From IMG/VR virus record IMGVR_UViG_3300000301_000085: DNA of 19,785 nt. One strand, 5' to 3'. The notes beneath the pieces are model-generated. The model did no database searches. It had not been told where the DNA came from and worked only from the letters and a program-made list of their open reading frames with translations. This DNA is from a virus (lineage: Duplodnaviria; Heunggongvirae; Uroviricota; Caudoviricetes). The position numbers were made by a program, and so were the translations under genes. This document shows, one piece after another, positions 3,607 through 19,670 of the stretch; the stretch's first letter is position 1; each line of letters starts with the position of its first letter.

Positions 3607-4884
3607 TCAGCCCTTTCCAGACGCTCTGCTTTTGTGNNNNNNNNNNNNNNNNNNNNNNNNNNNNNNNNNNNNNNNNNNNNNNNNNNNNNNNNNNNNNNNN
3701 NNNNNNNNNNNNNNNNNNNCAAGCAAGCTATTTACACGCTGGAAGTCATACATTTTTGCGGCACCAGATGAATTATCGATTCCCTGTGCGTTGTCCTGCT
3801 TCGTTCGCTCACCAGCTACACCAACTGAATGGTAGATTTCGTTAATCACCGTCTTAATCGTAGTGATGATCATCTGAGCTTGTTTCGGGTCTGGTGACAG
3901 ATAAAACGGCTGGTTTCCACCTTCAGAATCGTAGGTGAAGACTCGCTTTGTGCCCATTTCAAGCACTTTAGTGTGGTTTTCATCACCAGGTAAAAGCGAC
4001 TGTACCGGTATAGCCAACTGGCTAAATGTCTGATCCTGAATAATGGCATCAAGGTTTGACAGATAGTTTGCAACCGCACGATCAAGATAAGCGATATCAT
4101 CGATCAACGATGGGCTGAAATACGGTGATTCACTTTCTCCAATACAATCAACAGGAAACACAGGAACTACGCCGAGATTATGCTCACCGCTATCCTCTAA
4201 AATAACTTTTGCCTGACGGCGACCTGCTCCACCAGCGCCCTTCTTCACTTCCTCACGGAACAGATACCACTCGTTTTGTGTCCACAGACGATAACGTTGG
4301 TATTCCTGACCTGTAGAAGTAAAAGGATCTGCGTCATCACGAGCGACTTCCACAATTAACGCCCACAACATATTCCCGTCGTCGTCCCATGCCACATCAA
4401 GCATTTGCTGAGGTGAAATCCAGTAGGCGTAGGCGCGAGCATCTTTCTTTTTCTCGTCAGCTACTGACTCAACATCACCACTCATCGTGCTATCGACAAC
4501 AACCCATATGCGACCGTAAATAGACGACTGCAAATCAATAGCGGCCATAAATGAGTCAATAGAGGCATTCTGGCGAGTCGCACGTTTCCAGAAATTGCGG
4601 ATCTGCTCTGGTGCCTCTTCGATATTTCTATGAATGTCTTCTTTAAAGAGATATTTGTTGATGAGGTTTACCACCTCACGAGTGTGGTTGAAGCGATAAG
4701 CACGTTCAACTCGCTCCTTAAACTCCTGATCTCCCTCTTTAAAGTAACGAAAGATATTGTCTGTAAACCAACCACGCCCGCCAGCGTAAGTGCTGGCGAG
4801 GAAGTCCCAATGTTCTTTTTTCTTTTCGTATTCCGGGTGGCGTCGCGCCACCAGATCCTTAATTTGTTTGTCGTTCAATTCCAT
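3607..4884 (-). CDS. putative portal protein
   Basis: 425-aa ORF immediately downstream of terminase large subunit; TAAGGT SD before ATG 4884. Assignment by synteny and size. Confidence 0.6.
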   Translation of the reverse strand: MELNDKQIKDLVARRHPEYEKKKEHWDFLASTYAGGRGWFTDNIFRYFKEGDQEFKERVERAYRFNHTREVVNLINKYLFKEDIHRNIEEAPEQIRNFWKRATRQNASIDSFMAAIDLQSSIYGRIWVVVDSTMSGDVESVADEKKKDARAYAYWISPQQMLDVAWDDDGNMLWALIVEVARDDADPFTSTGQEYQRYRLWTQNEWYLFREEVKKGAGGAGRRQAKVILEDSGEHNLGVVPVFPVDCIGESESPYFSPSLIDDIAYLDRAVANYLSNLDAIIQDQTFSQLAIPVQSLLPGDENHTKVLEMGTKRVFTYDSEGGNQPFYLSPDPKQAQMIITTIKTVINEIYHSVGVAGERTKQDNAQGIDNSSGAAKMYDFQRVNSLLXXXXXXXXXXXXXXXXXXXXXXXXXXXXHKSRASGKG

Positions 4885-7361: not shown

Positions 7362-8316
7362 TCAGGGTTTCGGTACACACCATACAACGGANNNNNNNNN
7401 NNNNNNNNNNNNNNNNNNNNNNNNNNNNNNNNNNNNNNNNNNNNNNNNNNNNNNNNNNNNNNNNNNNNNNNNNNNNNNNNNNNTGTGAATGTCCTTGAGC
7501 AGCTTCACAATGCTGGCCTCGTCCACCAGACTGTCGGCAATGTCCTGAATCGTCGTGCCACGATTCCGCCCAGCTTTTGCCAGGGAACTGTTCTTATGGT
7601 AGTCCGCCACCAAATCGCGCAGCGCACGGCGACGACGAGACTCGCTCATAGCGAACAACTCTTTGACGATCGCCTCGTTATCACCCGGGTCGGAGCGGAA
7701 ATGGCGCTGGAACACACGCAGTGCACTTTCATAGCTCTTCGGTCGCTCAGGGCGGATGAACTTAAACCCTGCTTTCATGGCGAAGGGATTGTATTTGCTC
7801 ATCGAGGACTGGATCTCAATGATTGGCCGGTCATGCATCCTGCTAACCAGGTTAATCATTCGATAAGAGACGCCTACGCCACGATACTGAGTATCCACAA
7901 CTGAGCGACTGATCACCGCAAAGTTGTTATTCACGTACCGACCCCAGTANNNNNNNNNNNNNNNNNNNNNNNNNNNNNNNNNNNNNNNNNNNNNNNNNNN
8001 NNNNNNNNNNNNNNNNNNNNNNNNNNNNNNNNNNNNNNNNNNNNNNNNNNNNNNTTGGTTTCAACTTAGGAAACATGCGGTGGCGAGGTGCCAACAGTAG
8101 TTTCGGGTAAGCCATAACCACGACGCCCACCAGACGGTCATCAAGTTCGCAGCGATAGTAAGTTGGCGCGAAAGGTTTGCCGTCTGTTTTGTAGTGAAGC
8201 GACTTAAGAGCGTGCCAGTCCTCTACAGTCCCCTTTGTAACAGTCATTCGCTCCAGAAAGTCCAGATGACGCGGAAACTCTTCAGGGCGGTAGCGTTTAA
8301 TGATGATGTCCGTCAT
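7362..8316 (-). CDS. GNAT-fold acyltransferase-like protein with C-terminal extension (interrupted by masked segments 7950-8054 and 7392-7483; frame differs across the first)
   Basis: N-part LVGVVVMAYP (beta strand); C-part FAVISRSVVDTQYRGVGVSYRMINLV (R-G-x-G motif A-like) and NPFAMKAGFKFI (motif B-like); start ATGA-coupled to the upstream ATPase stop (8313-8316). Confidence 0.45.
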
Positions 8317-9064
8317 GAATGGACCTCATCATGAATACCATTGTGATATTCCACCTTCACGCGTTCTTTGTAGTGCTTGGTGATCTGCATATCAGGGCGC
8401 AGCGCGTTCTTCAGGTCTTCGTGAGTCGTCGCCACCATTACCGTCGCACCAACCTTTCGAGCGGCACGCTGGAGGTTAGACGCCACAACCTGAGCGGTTA
8501 CACGGTCGAGAACAGCGCCGAACTCGTCAGCAGCCCATACTTTAGCGCCTGACTCAATCAGTTTGGCAATCTTGAGACGATATTTCTGGCCGTCTGACAT
8601 TTCAGAAGGCTTGCGAACAAACAGATATGCATCGTTCAGACCAGCCATAGATANNNNNNNNNNNNNNNNNNNNNNNNNNNNNNNNNNNNNNNNNNNNNNN
8701 NNNNNNNNNNNNNNNNNNNNNNNNNNNNNNNNNNNNNNNNNNNNNNNNNCGCATCACTGGTCGTTTTGCCCAACTGATCGATGACGTTAACCTCATTATC
8801 GAAGGTAAAATCATCGATGGAGGCTACAGACAGCCCTTCATCCTTCATCTGTCGTTGCAACTCGCGCAGCACAACGGATTTGCCGGAACCGGATTGGCCG
8901 GTGATGTACACCACATCGCCCTGCTTCACTTCCAGCTCCAGATTGTCGTAAAGCGTCCACTCTTTTTCGTCCAGGCCAAGCCCGAACGACTCAGCGATTT
9001 CCAACGTGCGCGTGGTTTTATTTACGCGTGTCTGAAACGATACGTTGATGATGTATTTGCTCAT
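8313..9064 (-). CDS. ABC-type ATPase (nucleotide-binding-domain-like, ~250 aa; two ORF segments, frame changes at masked segment 8654-8749)
   Basis: Walker A YITGQSGSGKS; signature-like SDGQKYRLKIAKL; Walker B/D-loop VWAADEFGAVLD; H-loop MVATTHED; ATGA coupling to the ParB-like gene at 9061-9064. Confidence 0.7.
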
Positions 9065-9729: not shown

Positions 9730-10409
9730 TACATACGCTCCTTGTAGTAGTCGACCAGCCACACCAGAGCCTCACCAGCGTTCTCCATTTCATTACCGGT
9801 GTTAATAGCCTGCTCTTTGATGATGTTTTTTATGGTTTCTGCAACACGATCTGACGCATCGAAAGTTACTTTGAAGCGCATGGTCTGATGTTCCGCACCC
9901 ACACGTTCGGTTTTCTCTCGTTTGTCGGTATCGACAGGCTCATCACTACCACGAGACAACGCCTCCAGTGCTTCAAGGTCGATTGCCGCCTCTTTTGCTA
10001 AAACCATCGAGATTTCGTCGTCATACGGAGCGATTTCAGACAGTTGATAGTCAAGTTCTGACTGAATTTCTTCAATGAAGCGTTGCAATGCGATTTGGTC
10101 GTCTTCACCGTATCGCTCGTTGTCCACCAGTGACATCTGTTTAGCTACGACATCGCTAATTTTGCCCACAGAAAGCACCGGAACCGTTGAAATTCCTTGC
10201 TCAATAGCAGCACGCCAGCGATGTTCACCGCCGAGGATTTCAAAAAATCCATCTTCAAGTTCACGAGCCAAAATTGGCTTAAAAAAGCCCAATTTTTCGA
10301 TAGAACCTTTCAGTTTTTCAAAATTCTGCGCACCAACCGAATTGGTGTTCCAGGTATTCGGGCGAAGGTTGGCAACATCAACCTGCAAAATCGTGATTTT
10401 TACATCCAT
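9729..10409 (-). CDS. ParB/Srx-like N-terminal-domain protein (paralog 1)
   Basis: ILGGEHRWRAA ParB box; ATG 10409 preferred over GTG 10427; first gene of the leftward operon. Confidence 0.75.
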   Translation of the reverse strand: MDVKITILQVDVANLRPNTWNTNSVGAQNFEKLKGSIEKLGFFKPILARELEDGFFEILGGEHRWRAAIEQGISTVPVLSVGKISDVVAKQMSLVDNERYGEDDQIALQRFIEEIQSELDYQLSEIAPYDDEISMVLAKEAAIDLEALEALSRGSDEPVDTDKREKTERVGAEHQTMRFKVTFDASDRVAETIKNIIKEQAINTGNEMENAGEALVWLVDYYKERM

Positions 10410-10491
10410 TTTATTGCTACAATCCACTAAGTAATCACTTACTTATTATAATAGCCAAATAACATACAAAAGGCACTAAGGAAAGAGGTTT
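10410..10491. promoter_or_regulatory. divergent promoter region with palindromic operator-like site
   Basis: TATAAT at 10447-10452, palindromic with its minus-strand counterpart; inverted repeat TAAGTAA-TCAC-TTACTTA at 10428-10445; AAGGAAAGAGG SD before ATG 10492. Confidence 0.5.
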
Positions 10492-12131
10492 ATGACTGTT
10501 CGGATTGTATCTAACGCAGTAAATGCGCTTATTTCTGGCGCAGATGACAAGGTAAAGCAACTGGTGCAGCAAATGTTGAGCTACGAAGTCGAGACTGGCG
10601 ACTGGAAGGGCACAAGCACGATGTTCAACTGGAGTAAAAACTCGTTCCCTGCTGGCTTTGCCAAGCCTGTAGCGGCGAACTTGAACAAGGCGGGCATCAA
10701 ATGTGTTCATATCCGCAAAGACAAAGCCCCGGCGCTTGGTAAACCAAATCCGGCGGTTAACCCATTCCCATACAATCCTGATTATGCATATCAGGATCAG
10801 ACTGTGGAAACACTGGTTCGAGAGGGAATGATGATTGCGCAGATCGCTACTGGTGGCGGGAAATCTAACGTTGCCTGCAAAGCAGCTGCACGTATCGGTC
10901 GAATGACATTATTTTTAACAACCCGCTCTGTTCTGATGTTTCAAATGGCCGAAAACTTCCAGAGATCCATCGACTACCGCGCCGAAAATGGCGAACCGTG
11001 GTTAAAAGACCAAAAGGTTGGAGTCATTGGCTCGGGTGAGTTCCAGGTATCACGACATATCAACGTCGCTACAGTTCAAACTCTGGCAAGTTTCCTTGAA
11101 GAACCACCACGCGATGCAACACCAGATAAAAAGAGCTACCACCTCAAACGTCGGGAGCTAGTGAAACGCTTCCTTTCAAGTGTGTCTCTGCTTATTCTGG
11201 AAGAAGCGCATGAGTCTTCAGGCTCTAATTTCTATGACATTGCCAGATTATGTGTGAACGCAGACTATCGTCTGGCGCTTACGGCCACGCCGTTCATGAA
11301 GGATTCTACAGAAGCCAACATGCGTCTGATGGCTGTGGCCGGTCGAATTGAAATTAAAGTCACAGAAAAGTACCTGATTGATCGAGGCATTCTGGCAAAA
11401 CCGTACTTCCTTTATCATAAAGTTGCTTACAAGCCAGACGAGGTCAGAATCAAGGCGGAACTTGCCAACAAACACCTTAATTTTAGAGTTGGTATGAGCA
11501 CCGCCTACCAAAAGGCTTATCAGTTGGGGATCGTGTATAATTTGGGACGTAACNNNNNNNNNNNNNNNNNNNNNNNNNNNNNNNNNNNNNNNNNNNNNNN
11601 NNNNNNNNNNNNNNNNNNNNNNNNNNNNNNNNNNAGGCCATAGTGCGCGAGGCATTGCTTTATAAGCAACATTCACTCAACTGCATGACTCTGGTTCGTC
11701 TTAAACGCCACGGGCAAATCCTGATGGAGATGATGAAGGAGTCAGGTCTTAAAGTTGATTTCATCTATGGGGAATCTAACCAGACGACAAGGCAAGCAAA
11801 GCTGAATAGTTTAGCGTCTGGTGAAATAGATGTTTTAATAGGCTCGACTATTCTGGATGTTGGTGTTGATGTGCCAAGCGTTGGTGCGGTCATTCTTGCT
11901 GGTGGTGGGAAAGCAGAAGTTGAAATGAGACAGCGTGTCGGTCGTGGCTTACGAGCCAAAAAAAATCAGGCAAACGTGTGTTTTATCACTGATTTCATTG
12001 ACATTAGCAACAAATACCTGTTGTCTCACTCTTATGAGCGAAAACACATCATCGACACCACACCTGGCTTTGCAGAAGGTGTATTGCCTATTGATGGAGC
12101 ATTCGATTTTGGAGTTCTGAAACGAGATTAG
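10492..12131 (+). CDS. superfamily-2 (DEAD/DEAH-like) helicase; two ORF segments across masked 11554-11634
   Basis: Motif I IATGGGKS; motif II LILEEAHES; motif III LALTATPF; C-terminal motif VI QRVGRGLR; ~110-aa N-terminal extension. Confidence 0.8.
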
Positions 12132-12133
12132 TT

Positions 12134-12412
12134 ATGAGTGAAAAGAAAACAACTTACTGTCAGGTAGCATTGTCTGATAAGGCCAATGACAAACTTGGAA
12201 AGTTTCAAGTGAAACTAAAAGAAAAAAATATCAAAATGTCTAAGGCTGAAGTCATAAATACCATTCTGGAACAATTGACAATGGCCGACTTTGACAAGGT
12301 TATATCTTCTGTCGGGGCTTCCGCTAAGACTCGTGAGAAAATCATGCGTATCTATGAGAACTCTAATATGACAAAGGAAGATCTCGAAACGCTATTAAGC
12401 AGATTAAAATAA
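12134..12412 (+). CDS. small protein, possible ribbon-helix-helix DNA binder
   Basis: 92 aa; starts 3 nt after helicase stop; N-terminal beta-strand then two helices (TTYCQVALSDKANDKLGKFQVKLKEKNIKMSKAEVINTILEQL). Confidence 0.45.
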   Translation: MSEKKTTYCQVALSDKANDKLGKFQVKLKEKNIKMSKAEVINTILEQLTMADFDKVISSVGASAKTREKIMRIYENSNMTKEDLETLLSRLK

Positions 12413-12438
12413 TCACGCTATCAATTAGGGAGACAAAG

Positions 12439-12873
12439 ATGAAGTCTCCCATACTGTTCACTTTCTGTTCTAAAACTAACATGAAATACTCGCTTCTCCC
12501 TCTACTAACGTTACCAGTGTTGATGCTTACCGCGTGCCAATCACGTCCAATATCAATCCATGACGCCAAACCAGCACCGCAGGCCAAAGTGTTCAAGTAT
12601 CAAAGCGCAGCGCCAGCTACGTTGGTGGTAATGAGAGACACAGGTTTTGTAGGAGCTGGATGTGATGCTTCCATTTTCATCAATGGCGAAACTGTCGCAA
12701 AACTGGCTACAGGCGAAAAAGCGACTTTTCATTTAAATGCCGGAGAANNNNNNNNNNNNNNNNNNNNNNNNNNNNNNNNNNNNNNNNNNNNNNNNNNNNN
12801 NNNNNNNNNNNNNNNNNNNNNNNNNNNNNNNNNNNNNNNNNNNCTCTTGAAGGTGCAGGTTTATGTGCTCTAA
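12439..12873 (+). CDS. putative lipoprotein (3' end uncertain, masked 12748-12843)
   Basis: GGGAGA SD; hydrophobic signal with lipobox-like LTAC then Cys (MKYSLLPLLTLPVLMLTAC); alternative start at 12481. Confidence 0.55.
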   Translation: MKSPILFTFCSKTNMKYSLLPLLTLPVLMLTACQSRPISIHDAKPAPQAKVFKYQSAAPATLVVMRDTGFVGAGCDASIFINGETVAKLATGEKATFHLNAGEXXXXXXXXXXXXXXXXXXXXXXXXXXXXXXXXLLKVQVYVL

Positions 12874-12909
12874 ACCCCGCTCGTCAAGAGCGAGAAACGA
12901 CTCTGAAGA

Positions 12910-13440
12910 ATGGAGACACAAAAGCGTTCAGGGTGTTCACCAGCAATTCTGGTGACATCGACATTCTGCCAACAACTCTGTGATGACATGACAACCAAAG
13001 ATATTACCTACGGTATCCAAGCTGAACTCTGGCCGCGAGATTACACTAACGTTGAAAAANNNNNNNNNNNNNNNNNNNNNNNNNNNNNNNNNNNNNNNNN
13101 NNNNNNNNNNNNNNNNNNNNNNNNNNNNNNNNNNNNNNNNNNNNNNNNNNNNNNNNNNNNACAAATTCCTGTAAGGGTCACTCTCGAAGATGGCCAGGCG
13201 TTTTGCATGTACGTTTATGGCCTCATGCCATCTCGTAACAAAGTTGACCTTTGCCCAGCCCCTTTTGACAAAGAAAATCGTATAAGGCTCCCACTTGAAC
13301 GCATTAGTACAATTGAATCAGGTGTGGTTGANNNNNNNNNNNNNNNNNNNNNNNNNNNNNNNNNNNNNNNNNNNNNNNNNNNNNNNNNNNNNNNNNNNNN
13401 NNNNNNNNNNNNNNNNNNNNNNNNNTCAAAGGTCGACTAA
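12910..13440 (+). CDS. hypothetical protein(s); two masked segments, continuity unproven
   Basis: Open frame through masks 13060-13160 and 13332-13425; no recognisable motif; weak SD. Confidence 0.3.
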   Translation: METQKRSGCSPAILVTSTFCQQLCDDMTTKDITYGIQAELWPRDYTNVEKXXXXXXXXXXXXXXXXXXXXXXXXXXXXXXXXXXQIPVRVTLEDGQAFCMYVYGLMPSRNKVDLCPAPFDKENRIRLPLERISTIESGVVXXXXXXXXXXXXXXXXXXXXXXXXXXXXXXXXSKVD

Positions 13441-13539
13441 CAGTTCACCCTGATTATGTCGATAATCGGCCATCACGCCGCGATTTTTTTGCAATTTGCA
13501 ACCAAGCCTACAAAGCAAACAAATCTATAAGGGTGTACA

Positions 13540-13668
13540 TGGCGGATGGCCGTGAAATTGAGGGGGTGTCAGCAGGCGCAGATGCTTGTCAGGTTACACT
13601 ACGTGTCGAGAACGGTAGAAAAATAGTTGTTTTGTTCGATTGGGTTGAACGAATTTTGCCTTTTTGAG
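13540..13668 (+). CDS. small hypothetical protein (42 aa)
   Basis: AAGGGTG SD; ATG 13540; stop 3 nt before the next start; below the ORF-track size cutoff. Confidence 0.3.
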
Positions 13669-13670
13669 TT

Positions 13671-13979
13671 ATGAAATCGATATTGTTACCACCATTATTT
13701 TTACTTTGCTCAGTTGCGGCAAATGCAATGGACTATAAGCCTGTCATTCAGTCGCTGATGAATGACGTGTGCTCAACGTCTCAGAATGTATCAGTTTGCA
13801 TGTATCAATTTTCGGCAGCCGTAAAAGCAGGAAAAGCGATAGGTGAGAGTGTGGAACTGTGTAAGAAAGTGGCAAATGAAGAACGGGCAATGTTGGATTG
13901 CGAATCTAGCGAGTCATCGGCACAGTTCGTTGATGCGCTATTTGACACCAATCGTAAGGCTGTAGAGTCTGTTCAATAA
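13671..13979 (+). CDS. small secreted (periplasmic) protein, four Cys in mature part
   Basis: Signal peptide MKSILLPPLFLLCSVAANA with AxA cleavage motif; followed by a terminator. Confidence 0.55.
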   Translation: MKSILLPPLFLLCSVAANAMDYKPVIQSLMNDVCSTSQNVSVCMYQFSAAVKAGKAIGESVELCKKVANEERAMLDCESSESSAQFVDALFDTNRKAVESVQ

Positions 13980-13991
13980 ATCTATAAGGTT

Positions 13992-14022
13992 AATAACCGG
14001 CTAAGTCCGGTTATTATTTTTC
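13992..14022 (+). terminator. intrinsic terminator
   Basis: AATAACCGG-CTAAGT-CCGGTTATT followed by ATTTTT. Confidence 0.65.
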
Positions 14023-14147
14023 ACATCACTTCTTTATATCTATAAATCAAATAACCTAAATATATATAAGGTCTAAAGCCGGAATCGATTATTTATTTAG
14101 GGAACACCTTCGACGATCTCGCTTTTATTTCTAGGACTTTCATCCCT

Positions 14148-14204
14148 GCAAAAAATTTAAAAAAAACACTTGCAATCTTTTTTCGCATATCGATAATTGA
14201 ACTC
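14148..14204 (+). promoter_or_regulatory. strong sigma70-type promoter with upstream A-tract
   Basis: -35 TTGCAA (14170-14175), 16-nt spacer, -10 GATAAT (14192-14197); A-tract AAAAAATTTAAAAAAAA upstream (UP-element-like). Confidence 0.6.
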
Positions 14205-14262
14205 GTCGAAAGCGAAGACACTAACGACAATAAATTTTAAATTTACATAAGGAAAAATTATC

Positions 14263-14913
14263 ATGGCTAACATTATCATTTCTAAAAAATCCATCGTTGA
14301 AGCTGCTTCCATTGTATCCGATGAACTGCGCGAAAAAGCAGATCTGGCAACTCAAACATATAACGAACATTATAAAAATGGTACGCACACTAAAGCAGAC
14401 AAAGCAAATATGCAAGCTGCGACCACTAAACTTGCTTACTTCATCAACAACGTTGTAAACGCTGTAGAAGACGAAAAATTATGCTCTGTTTTCTACTATG
14501 CGATTAAAGCAAGCAAACAAGCGCCAGAAGTATTTTTCCGTGATGCAATGACTAATAGTTATTCTCTGGAAAAACTGGTTTATCTGGTTAAATCCATTAA
14601 AGCTGGCAAATGTGTTTATTCCGTCGCTGATATGTCAGGATCTCGTGTATTCGCTTTAATCGATATGATTAACGACGAGATCGACACGTTCACCAATGGC
14701 GCTGTTTTCGATTTAATGAATGAAGCTAAAAAAGCGTGTGAAATTAAATTGGACGCTGGCTATACTCAAGCCAACCAGTTGATCAATCTTTGCGAACGTC
14801 TTGGACTTGTTGAAAAAGTCAAAGGAGCTGGGAGCGCGAAAGCTGGTACTCAGCAATATCGCTTCATTAAAAATGATTTCTACAATTATTTAGCTGATGC
14901 TTTCAAAGCGTAA
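14263..14913 (+). CDS. hypothetical protein (216 aa), predicted to be highly expressed
   Basis: TAAGGAA SD 8 nt before ATG; AT-rich but uses host-preferred codons (GCT, GAA, AAA, ATC, TTC, CGT/CGC); no recognisable catalytic motif. Confidence 0.7.
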   Translation: MANIIISKKSIVEAASIVSDELREKADLATQTYNEHYKNGTHTKADKANMQAATTKLAYFINNVVNAVEDEKLCSVFYYAIKASKQAPEVFFRDAMTNSYSLEKLVYLVKSIKAGKCVYSVADMSGSRVFALIDMINDEIDTFTNGAVFDLMNEAKKACEIKLDAGYTQANQLINLCERLGLVEKVKGAGSAKAGTQQYRFIKNDFYNYLADAFKA

Positions 14914-15186: not shown

Positions 15187-15567
15187 ATGTTTGTTCTTAT
15201 CGCTGGCGTTAACGTCCATAATGAATATTATGTTAATCGCATCGCTGGGATAGCTGGTTACGCTGGGCGCTCAGTCGAGTTTATCGATGAAACAACGCGT
15301 AAAATTGATTTATTGAGCGACCAGGAGCGAAAAAAAGCAGACGTGAACGACGCTGATATATTTTTAATGTTAAAAGCGTTTGTAGAAATGGGATTTAAAA
15401 TCAGTTTACACAAATNNNNNNNNNNNNNNNNNNNNNNNNNNNNNNNNNNNNNNNNNNNNNNNNNNNNNNNNNNNNNNNNNNNNNNNNNNNNNNNNNNNNN
15501 NNNNNNNNNNNNNNNNNNNATGGGCGCTTTTTTCGTTTCCAATACTCCCACCATAACGCGCCAATGA
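15187..15567 (+). CDS. hypothetical protein (3' end uncertain, masked 15416-15519)
   Basis: TAAGGAG SD before ATG 15187; N-terminal 76 aa readable; the post-mask tail may be out of frame. Confidence 0.45.
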   Translation: MFVLIAGVNVHNEYYVNRIAGIAGYAGRSVEFIDETTRKIDLLSDQERKKADVNDADIFLMLKAFVEMGFKISLHKXXXXXXXXXXXXXXXXXXXXXXXXXXXXXXXXXXXMGAFFVSNTPTITRQ

Positions 15568-19373: not shown

Positions 19374-19670
19374 TTAATCTTCGTCGTCCGGGAACTCGCT
19401 GTGTACCGCGCCCACCAGCTCCCGCTTTTCATCTTCACTCAGCAGGTGCCAGATATNNNNNNNNNNNNNNNNNNNNNNNNNNNNNNNNNNNNNNNNNNNN
19501 NNNNNNNNNNNNNNNNNNNNNNNNNNNNNNNNNNNNNNNNNNNNNNNNNNNNNNNNTTCTGCCGGGACGAACGACCACAACTTGCGGTACAACTCCGGCC
19601 CCACTGCATCCAGACACTCAGCCAGGGAATCCACGCCCCACACCTCAACCGTCACAGGCATCTTAATCAT
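19374..19670 (-). CDS. small acidic protein (about 98 aa, middle masked 19457-19556)
   Basis: GAGGA SD before ATG 19670; acidic C-terminus EFPDDED. Confidence 0.5.
   Translation of the reverse strand: MIKMPVTVEVWGVDSLAECLDAVGPELYRKLWSFVPAEXXXXXXXXXXXXXXXXXXXXXXXXXXXXXXXXXXIWHLLSEDEKRELVGAVHSEFPDDED

Follow-up and report, generated by a model that had tools for sequence, protein, structure and literature searches.

Two exported accessory proteins in a variable island of an SSU5-type phage-plasmid, and a possible role of one of them in phage exclusion

The virus record IMGVR_UViG_3300000301_000085 (Caudoviricetes) is a stretch of 19,785 nucleotides (nt), hereafter the window, that belongs to a phage-plasmid of the SSU5/pHCM2 type. 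In megablast searches its region 10400-14300 is 99.1% identical to Escherichia phage CMS-2020a (CP053388.1), the other matches being the phage-plasmids Cyrano and PhiR41_1 and Salmonella phage SSU5; its synteny is shared with SSU5, Cyrano, pHCM2 and pMT1. Downstream of a helicase gene lie two genes, both on the + strand, whose products carry export signals: a lipoprotein of the family phrog_890 (12439..12983) and a secreted or periplasmic protein of 102 amino acids (aa), called p102 here (phrog_9536; 13671..13979). The gene order is helicase, p92, lipoprotein, FljA-like gene, p102, a terminator, an AT-rich spacer of about 250 bp, and a 216-aa gene (p216, at 14263). An earlier, sequence-only reading of this DNA had sent both products to the envelope and likened them to exclusion proteins of the Cor, Llp and SieA type. 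We consider it very likely that both are exported accessory proteins; exclusion of other phages by the lipoprotein is a more tentative matter.

The map of this region first needs correction. The window is interrupted at 11 places by N runs that measure 81-118 nt (1884-2001, 3637-3719, 7392-7483, 7950-8054, 8654-8749, 11554-11634, 12748-12843, 13060-13160, 13332-13425, 15416-15519 and 19457-19556), and the length of the runs is not preserved. Four of them were compared with an unmasked, 99% identical relative (locus L001), where they are only 1-23 nt long: the 81 N of 11554-11634 correspond to 1 nt; the 96 N of 12748-12843, inside the lipoprotein gene, to about 18 nt; and the 101 N of 13060-13160 and 94 N of 13332-13425, both inside the FljA-like gene, to 23 and 17 nt. 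As a result, any open reading frame (ORF) that crosses a run is mis-framed, and genes appear split in the window. The 519-aa DEAD/DEAH helicase, for example, is broken by a run into ORFs 10492-11643 and 11643-12131. True genes were read from L001 and from database proteins, not from the masked frames.

The lipoprotein has 154 aa when read from the ATG at 12439, or 140 aa from the Met at 12481. Its stop codon is the TGA at 12981-12983, which is read in another window frame past the N run. The sequence-only reading was right about the lipobox, LTAC, but ended the gene at a false stop (12871-12873) that appears because the run 12748-12843 shifts the apparent frame. It also had a Cys following LTAC. 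The Cys lies within the motif as the +1 residue (codon 12535-12537), and Gln follows at +2; the N-terminus from 12439 reads MKSPILFTFCSKTNMKYSLLPLLTLPVLMLTAC and then QSRP.

The signal calls for both proteins combine rules with conservation among homologues. For the lipoprotein we used a rule of the PROSITE PS51257 type: a positively charged N-region, an uncharged hydrophobic region, the lipobox [LIVMFWSTAG]2-[LIVMFYSTAGCQ]-[AGS]-C, and the Cys at 15-35. The protein conforms from either start (Cys33 from 12439, Cys19 from 12481), as do 185 of 199 full-length relatives, and Asp is found at +2 in none. Candidate starts with at least 60 codons downstream number 373 in the six frames of the window, and among these lipobox matches arise only from 12439 and 12481. 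As to which start is used, homologues outside the E. coli clade begin at the Met equivalent to 12481; in the E. coli clade a strong Shine-Dalgarno sequence (AGGGAGA) precedes 12439, and none precedes 12481.

The mature part is conserved at a few positions. Sampling 52 members of the wider family shows two Cys, C75 and C116 in the numbering from 12439, and an R-D motif to be invariant or nearly so, and the conserved Cys pair fits an oxidised domain of an exported lipoprotein. The match to the phrog_890 profile is strong (E 8.3e-51, positions 6-136 of 136). That to Pfam DUF2846 (PF11008) is 15.6-19.1 bits, under the gathering threshold of 34.3, and covers the central 'RD..G..G.GC...ING' region; similar sub-threshold matches occur in 12 of the 52 family members (best E 1.9e-5). 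Judging from these scores, the lipoprotein is at best a distant DUF2846 relative.

The assignment of p102 likewise rests on a signal-peptide rule and on conservation. Its N-terminus, MKSILLPPLFLLCSVAANA followed by MDYKP, consists of MK, a hydrophobic core and A-N-A, with small residues at -3 and -1. Cleavage probably occurs after residue 19 (coding 13671-13727), which would leave a mature part of 83 aa. In seven full-length homologues (64-98% identity) the first 19 residues drift but keep MK, the hydrophobic core and [AS]-x-A, and the mature N-terminus is almost invariant from residue 21 on. Of the four mature Cys, which are also kept, C34, C43 and C64 never vary and C77 hardly does. Both the signal peptide with its AxA site and the four Cys, as first noticed in the sequence, are thus conserved among homologues. 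In a structure model with a predicted local distance difference test score (pLDDT) of 71, p102 has helices at 23-34, 40-66, 69-72, 77-81 and 83-99, and its mature part is amphipathic.

Could these signals have arisen by chance, on products that are not exported or on ORFs that are no genes at all? For p102 the question arises because in several records the Prokaryotic Genome Annotation Pipeline (PGAP) has the protein begin at Met20, without the signal peptide, and because the phrog_9536 profile starts there too (E 5.8e-55; residues 20-102 match positions 1-83 of 83). Two p102 variants, however, have Lys at residue 20, which leaves only the upstream ATG as a start, and that ATG always lies 3 nt past the upstream stop codon; together these facts indicate that the long form is real. 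By a crude Sec heuristic only the p102 and lipoprotein ORFs pass among the 373 starts, and all seven full-length p102 homologues pass. Both signals are kept in kind down to 26-64% identity, and the mature Cys are conserved. Chance signals therefore deserve hardly any credence, and the envelope targeting of both proteins stands.

Between the two genes lies an FljA-like gene (PF03614 Flag1_repress; phrog_1444; 12988..13667, + strand), 175 aa long in the unmasked relative. Two N runs hide it in the window, and the lipoprotein and p102 genes are not neighbors. Its product matches PF03614 over the whole model (E 1.6e-84, 282.4 bits against a cut-off of 24, positions 1-170 of 170) and phrog_1444 at E 1.7e-100, and shares about 35% identity with a 'phase-1 flagellin repressor' encoded on a plasmid (H187). 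It also gives a weak Hfq-like match (E 7e-4). The gene is found in 835 PLSDB plasmids, 345 of Klebsiella and 62 of Y. pestis, and the lipoprotein gene in 419. Among SSU5-type phage-plasmids the FljA-like gene is near-core.

The ATG of p102 lies 3 nt downstream of the FljA-like stop codon with conserved spacing, an arrangement that suggests translational coupling of p102 to the FljA-like gene. In every inspected context p102 directly follows that gene, and it was found only in SSU5-type phage-plasmids. The 259 PLSDB plasmids with p102 are nearly all of about 105-115 kb, non-mobilizable and IncFIB, from E. coli (108), Klebsiella (103) and Salmonella (40, including pHCM2); only two phage records have it. 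Compared with SSU5 and pMT1, p102 is a precise indel of about 312 bp between the FljA-like stop and ATCTATAAGG plus the terminator hairpin. That hairpin (13991-14016) belongs to an intrinsic terminator at 13991..14021 (+ strand) with a 10-bp stem and then a T run (z = -4.1), which closes the transcription unit of the island; the hairpin directly follows the FljA-like stop in SSU5 and pMT1.

Some features around the indel deserve mention in their own right. The motif AAATCTATAAGG occurs twice where 0.01 occurrences are expected, at 13521-13532 inside the FljA-like gene and at 13978-13989, the exact junction of the p102 indel ahead of the terminator. A related copy lies near 14055-14070, and SSU5 and pMT1 have a recurring variant, AAATATATAAGGGT, in their spacer (L002 5925-6040). 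The motif could be a regulatory or recombination site. The spacer of the window (14017-14262) is about 69% identical to that of SSU5/pMT1 and holds several sigma-70-like sites on both strands ahead of the 216-aa gene.

The presence of an FljA-like gene between the two raises the question whether the lipoprotein and p102 act together with this RNA-binding repressor on flagella or another surface structure, or are themselves its targets. In the fljBA operon, fljA is preceded by the gene for the replacement surface antigen. The order lipoprotein, FljA-like, p102 is retained even where the lipoprotein is 54% identical, the FljA-like protein is a strong member of PF03614, and p102 is confined to the place right after it. 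But Klebsiella and Y. pestis, whose plasmids account for so many of the FljA-like genes, are non-motile hosts, and so flagellin mRNA is probably not the target, or not the sole one. Moreover, phrog_890 is widespread without an FljA-like neighbor, the lipoprotein gene is inverted in Klebsiella, and p102 is missing from the SSU5, pMT1 and Enterobacter phage-plasmids. A module centred on FljA is, in our judgment, improbable.

Nor do the two exported proteins form a demonstrable unit with each other. SSU5, pMT1 and the inspected Enterobacter phage-plasmid have the lipoprotein and lack p102, which comes and goes as the FljA-linked indel described above, and p102 identity (66-74%) does not follow lipoprotein identity (26-81%). 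An obligate pair is not compatible with these patterns.

The four genes p92, lipoprotein, FljA-like and p102 are a hypervariable accessory island of the moron type that evolves far faster than its flanks. Across seven phage-plasmids, amino acid identity is 91-99% for the helicase and 83-100% for p216 on the two flanks, and 52-99% for p92, 26-86% for the lipoprotein, 58-97% for the FljA-like protein and 66-74% for p102 within the island. The first island gene, p92 (phrog_1466; 92 aa; 12134..12412, + strand), directly follows the helicase; a terminator-like hairpin is seen between it and the lipoprotein gene in SSU5, pHCM2 and pMT1 and is missing in the clade of the window. In Klebsiella pPMK1-B the slot holds an inverted, minus-strand gene for a 145-aa phrog_890 member that is 26-32% identical (E 1.2e-41). 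The idea that Klebsiella phage-plasmids lack the lipoprotein is rejected on account of this gene. In Cyrano the slot holds unrelated genes, including one for a 266-aa 'putative membrane lipoprotein' (CYRAN_115), and no phrog_890.

Cyrano also offers a view of transcription in the lysogenic state. In Cyrano lysogens grown in lysogeny broth (LB), normalised RNA-seq counts were 46 for the helicase, 114 for p92, 28.6 for the slot lipoprotein and 18 for the FljA-like gene, compared to about 6 for p216 and about 7-10 for structural genes (PMC9928086 S1 Table). The p92 orthologue, CYRAN_117, is at about 12 times background in lysogens and among the more highly expressed genes of the phage-plasmid. 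The gap widened in culture medium and macrophages, where log2 FPKM (fragments per kilobase per million) values reached 7-9.4 for CYRAN_115 and the FljA-like gene vs. 3-5 for the structural genes shown (PMC9928086). As the helicase is 99% identical and synteny is shared with Cyrano, the island of the window is by analogy probably transcribed from the plasmid-prophage state too.

Outside the phage-plasmids, phrog_890 turns out to be a large family. When 1.84 billion cluster representatives were searched with its profile, 1,400 matched at E<=1e-3, and 660 of these also at E<=1e-10. Each stands for a cluster at 50% identity, and the family reaches from Enterobacteria to Pseudomonas, Vibrio and Ralstonia. 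Nearly every relative has a length of about 140 aa, and every one tested falls in phrog_890. The family has no match of characterised function in Pfam, NCBIfam, PADLOC or the PDB; NCBIfam gave no match for either the lipoprotein or p102, PDB sequence searches with the profiles of both families gave nothing significant, and a literature search found no functional studies of phrog_890 or phrog_9536.

The genomic contexts of the family are more telling. In at least nine lambda-like (pro)phages the gene adjoins the host-range genes I and J. It stands between gpK (JAB + NlpC/P60) and tail assembly gene I (phrog_32) plus J in six distinct Pseudomonas or metagenomic lambda-like prophages, and between gpK and I-J in coliphage mEp390, in a 54-kb N15-like Klebsiella plasmid and in P. 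aeruginosa phage vB_Pae_CF127a. In HK639 it lies between the tape-measure gene and M, beside a gene for a YafO-family toxin. In Vibrio phage H20 (L039 4314-5414) only 16 nt separate it from the cI repressor gene that precedes it in the same direction, so that it belongs to the immunity operon. In one metagenomic element it comes after an S24 repressor gene, genes for LPS modification (GT8 and Wzy_C) and HicAB. These are classic positions of prophage-expressed morons and exclusion genes.

The junction of K and I is itself a recurrent insertion slot in lambda-like (pro)phages, with the phrog_890 gene nearly always just upstream of I (loci L012-L019, L022, L023, L026 and L038). In some cases the slot is shared with other morons. 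In Pseudomonas, genes of defence type are also found in it: HEPN_AbiU2, Imm_superinfect (PF14373), Bro-N and helix-turn-helix regulators.

The same contexts allow a different interpretation, namely that the lipoprotein is made with the late tail genes and serves the lytic cycle at the tail tip, during or after lysis, by protecting progeny from debris or by neutralising the NlpC/P60 (C40) peptidase of an incoming gpK, much as T4 Spackle does with gp5. The short spacers and the shared orientation of the gene and its neighbors K and I in lambda-like phages imply co-transcription with the tail genes, and every checked phage with phrog_890 has a lambda-type K-I-J tip. The gene of the window, though, is separated by about 23 kb from the tail genes and belongs to a unit that is probably transcribed in lysogens, and in H20 the gene follows cI. 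K is 93-100% identical among phage-plasmids in which the lipoprotein is 26-86% identical or absent, and the correlation with K is not significant (rho 0.27). Co-variation with K, as expected of an immunity-like relation, or with the C-terminus of J was considered and is unsupported. We accordingly regard a tail-tip role as having poor prospects.

If the lipoprotein masks a receptor, is it the receptor of its own phage? Taking the J of Cyrano as reference, Cyrano lacks phrog_890 and has a side-fibre tip of its own type; CMS-2020a has the gene, a J that is 99.5% identical overall and identical in its last 350 aa, and a tip of the SSU5 type (93% to SSU5); pE16EC0562-7 has a 60% allele of the gene, a J that is 99.4% identical in the last 350 aa, and a Cyrano-type tip; and pHCM2 has an 80% allele and a third tip type. 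In this small sample there is no strict co-variation. A link of the lipoprotein to the J or fibre of this phage is rejected for this lineage, and it is unlikely that the role of the lipoprotein is limited to masking the phage's own receptor. Some observations on the receptor-binding proteins may be added. Those of CMS-2020a are mosaic (L028 10315-15042, 15139-19863), with a J like that of Cyrano and a tip like that of SSU5 and unrelated to that of Cyrano. The J-like protein of Klebsiella pPMK1-B (L030 6506-18676) is annotated as a single protein of 4,056 aa, about three times its E. coli/Salmonella counterparts.

Several results speak against exclusion by receptor masking and need to be weighed together. 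Across the seven phage-plasmids neither the presence nor the allele of the lipoprotein tracks J or the fibre tip, and a near-identical J occurs with the gene absent or as a 60% allele, so that the lipoprotein has no fixed tie to the receptor-binding proteins of its own phage. In five lambda-like prophages its identity relates to that of K, I or the J C-terminus with rho of only 0.1-0.3 (n=10 pairs, underpowered). SSU5 already has a canonical Cor beside its fibre genes. When the lipoprotein and p102 were scanned against PHROG, only phrog_890 and phrog_9536 were hit and not phrog_1119, the family of Cor, and hhalign of the lipoprotein family with SSU5 Cor aligned 23 residues of the signal peptide only (probability 58%); the proposed Cor type is thus not borne out by sequence. 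PADLOC-DB 2.0 gave no match at E<=0.1 for the lipoprotein, the FljA-like protein, p102 or p216. The structure model of the lipoprotein (pLDDT 48) is too poor for use, that of p102 matches generic helical bundles only, and one phrog_890 member lies among metabolic genes. The SieA type suggested earlier fails as well: P22 SieA is an inner-membrane protein with transmembrane helices, and apart from the cleavable signal no hydrophobic segment is present in either protein of the window.

In SSU5 the two lipoprotein genes are far apart, Cor (SSU5_025, phrog_1119) at 27.2 kb after the fibre genes and the phrog_890 gene at 97.4 kb after the helicase. The fibre genes of SSU5 are followed not only by Cor but also by a pair for an outer-membrane and a membrane protein like N15 gp22/gp23 (L025 26356-27463); Cor and the gp22/gp23-like pair are all absent from CMS-2020a (L028) and Cyrano (L029).

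The lack of linkage to the phage's own receptor-binding proteins also suits another explanation, that the lipoprotein, and perhaps p102, converts the host for its own fitness or virulence through changes of the envelope that affect adhesion, stress tolerance or resistance to serum or complement, in the manner of lambda Bor/Iss or plasmid TraT. Bor and TraT are outer-membrane lipoproteins similar in size to that of the window. The element is carried by pathogens (S. Typhi with pHCM2, Y. pestis with pMT1), and the Cyrano slot genes and the FljA-like gene are expressed more highly in culture medium and macrophages than in LB. On the other hand, there is no sequence relation to characterised virulence lipoproteins, Pfam and NCBIfam giving only the weak DUF2846 match, and the family is common in environmental prophages of Pseudomonas, Vibrio and Ralstonia, where serum resistance is irrelevant. 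The recurrent spot beside host-range genes and defence morons suits conflict between phages better. Host conversion of this kind is unlikely in our view, less so than the FljA-centred or the tail-tip explanation.

We thus return to exclusion, which is the reading we favor. An accessory, lysogen-expressed role, possibly phage exclusion, is plausible given the variability of the island, transcription of the Cyrano counterpart, placement of the family beside I/J and after cI, and its Imm_superinfect and AbiU2 neighbors. That the lipoprotein excludes phages by masking of the Cor/Llp kind, without a sequence relation to Cor, is a possibility that we put ahead of each of the alternatives above and somewhat short of even chances.

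The mechanism that we have in mind is as follows. The lipoprotein would be lipidated and sorted by Lol to the outer membrane, where a disulfide-bonded domain, beta-rich in the (poor) model, would sit on a Pro-rich tether of about 20 residues. It would bind or mask an outer-membrane component such that incoming phages could not adsorb or inject, and the same masking would keep progeny from being lost on debris. p102, a small helical protein with two predicted disulfides, would be made in proportion to the FljA-like protein through coupled translation and released to the periplasm; it would be an independent cassette, possibly a periplasmic inhibitor of some function of an incoming phage or of the envelope. 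Both would be prophage-expressed factors of envelope conversion. A wider proposition is that phrog_890 is a large family of new, structurally distinct analogues of Cor/Llp, that in SSU5-type elements its gene has moved into a fast-evolving, lysogen-expressed island and been joined there by the lineage-specific p102, and that this island with p102 and FljA-like forms an unrecognised cassette for envelope conversion. This is more doubtful still.

Both proteins are already catalogued, as SSU5_122 'lipoprotein', as a pMT1 'putative lipoprotein' (cited in the mEp390 annotation), and as phrog_890 and phrog_9536. The value of the present finding is in the corrected gene map and in a hypothesis based on context. 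Phage-plasmids of the SSU5/pHCM2/pMT1 type are common in E. coli, Klebsiella, Salmonella Typhi, Enterobacter and Y. pestis. Should the lipoprotein family prove to exclude phages, the short list of characterised lipoproteins that mask receptors would grow by a new and widespread class, and the phage resistance of clinical isolates with these elements would be easier to explain, a matter of relevance to phage therapy. The arrangement K-[lipoprotein]-I-J would be a simple genomic handle for finding such genes.

How do these proteins compare with known systems? The FljA-like protein matches the Salmonella FljA family over its full length; unlike Salmonella FljA, its gene has no adjacent flagellin gene or hin, and it is also present in the non-motile Klebsiella and Y. 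pestis. DUF2846, to which the lipoprotein has a weak but consistent match, is an uncharacterised family of putative bacterial lipoproteins. The one solved protein once placed under it, Bd1399, has been reassigned to DUF4360 (PMC10792529).

The Cor proteins (phi80/N15/HK022/mEp167; SSU5_025) are, like the lipoprotein of the window, small prophage lipoproteins with a classical lipobox that are encoded by accessory genes. Cor is an outer-membrane lipoprotein that inactivates FhuA. The proposed masking of a receptor is common to both, and phrog_890 members are also found beside host-range genes. The two are not homologous, however: they belong to different PHROGs, the mature part is about 55 aa in Cor and about 120 aa in the lipoprotein, SSU5 holds both at separate loci, and the gene of the window is away from the tail genes. 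Llp of T5 blocks FhuA as a lipoprotein, its gene lies beside that for the receptor-binding pb5, and it has the dual role of exclusion and protection of progeny, one that the lipoprotein of the window may share. It is exported as in the window, and phrog_890 likewise adjoins tail-tip genes in many lambda-like phages. But llp is an early gene of a virulent phage, whereas the gene of the window belongs to an island that is probably transcribed in lysogens, and its alleles vary independently of J and the fibre in the phage-plasmids compared.

For p102 a possible parallel is Spackle (gp61.3) of T4, a small, helical periplasmic protein that inhibits the tail lysozyme of a superinfecting phage. Both are of phage origin and about 100 aa long, with a cleavable signal and a small, all-helical domain that contains disulfides; in p102 the helices are those of the model and the disulfides are predicted.

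Finally, exclusion in other prophages has been achieved from similar positions. HK97 gp15 is an exclusion moron of the inner membrane, and lambda rexAB lies downstream of cI. P-FimU of P. aeruginosa is a moron in a tail gene cluster, a pilin mimic that acts against phages at the cell surface (PMC12952977). In family and in cellular location gp15 and P-FimU differ from the proteins of the window, but the genomic logic is shared: small accessory genes expressed from the prophage, placed among the tail genes or after the repressor, with action at the envelope.

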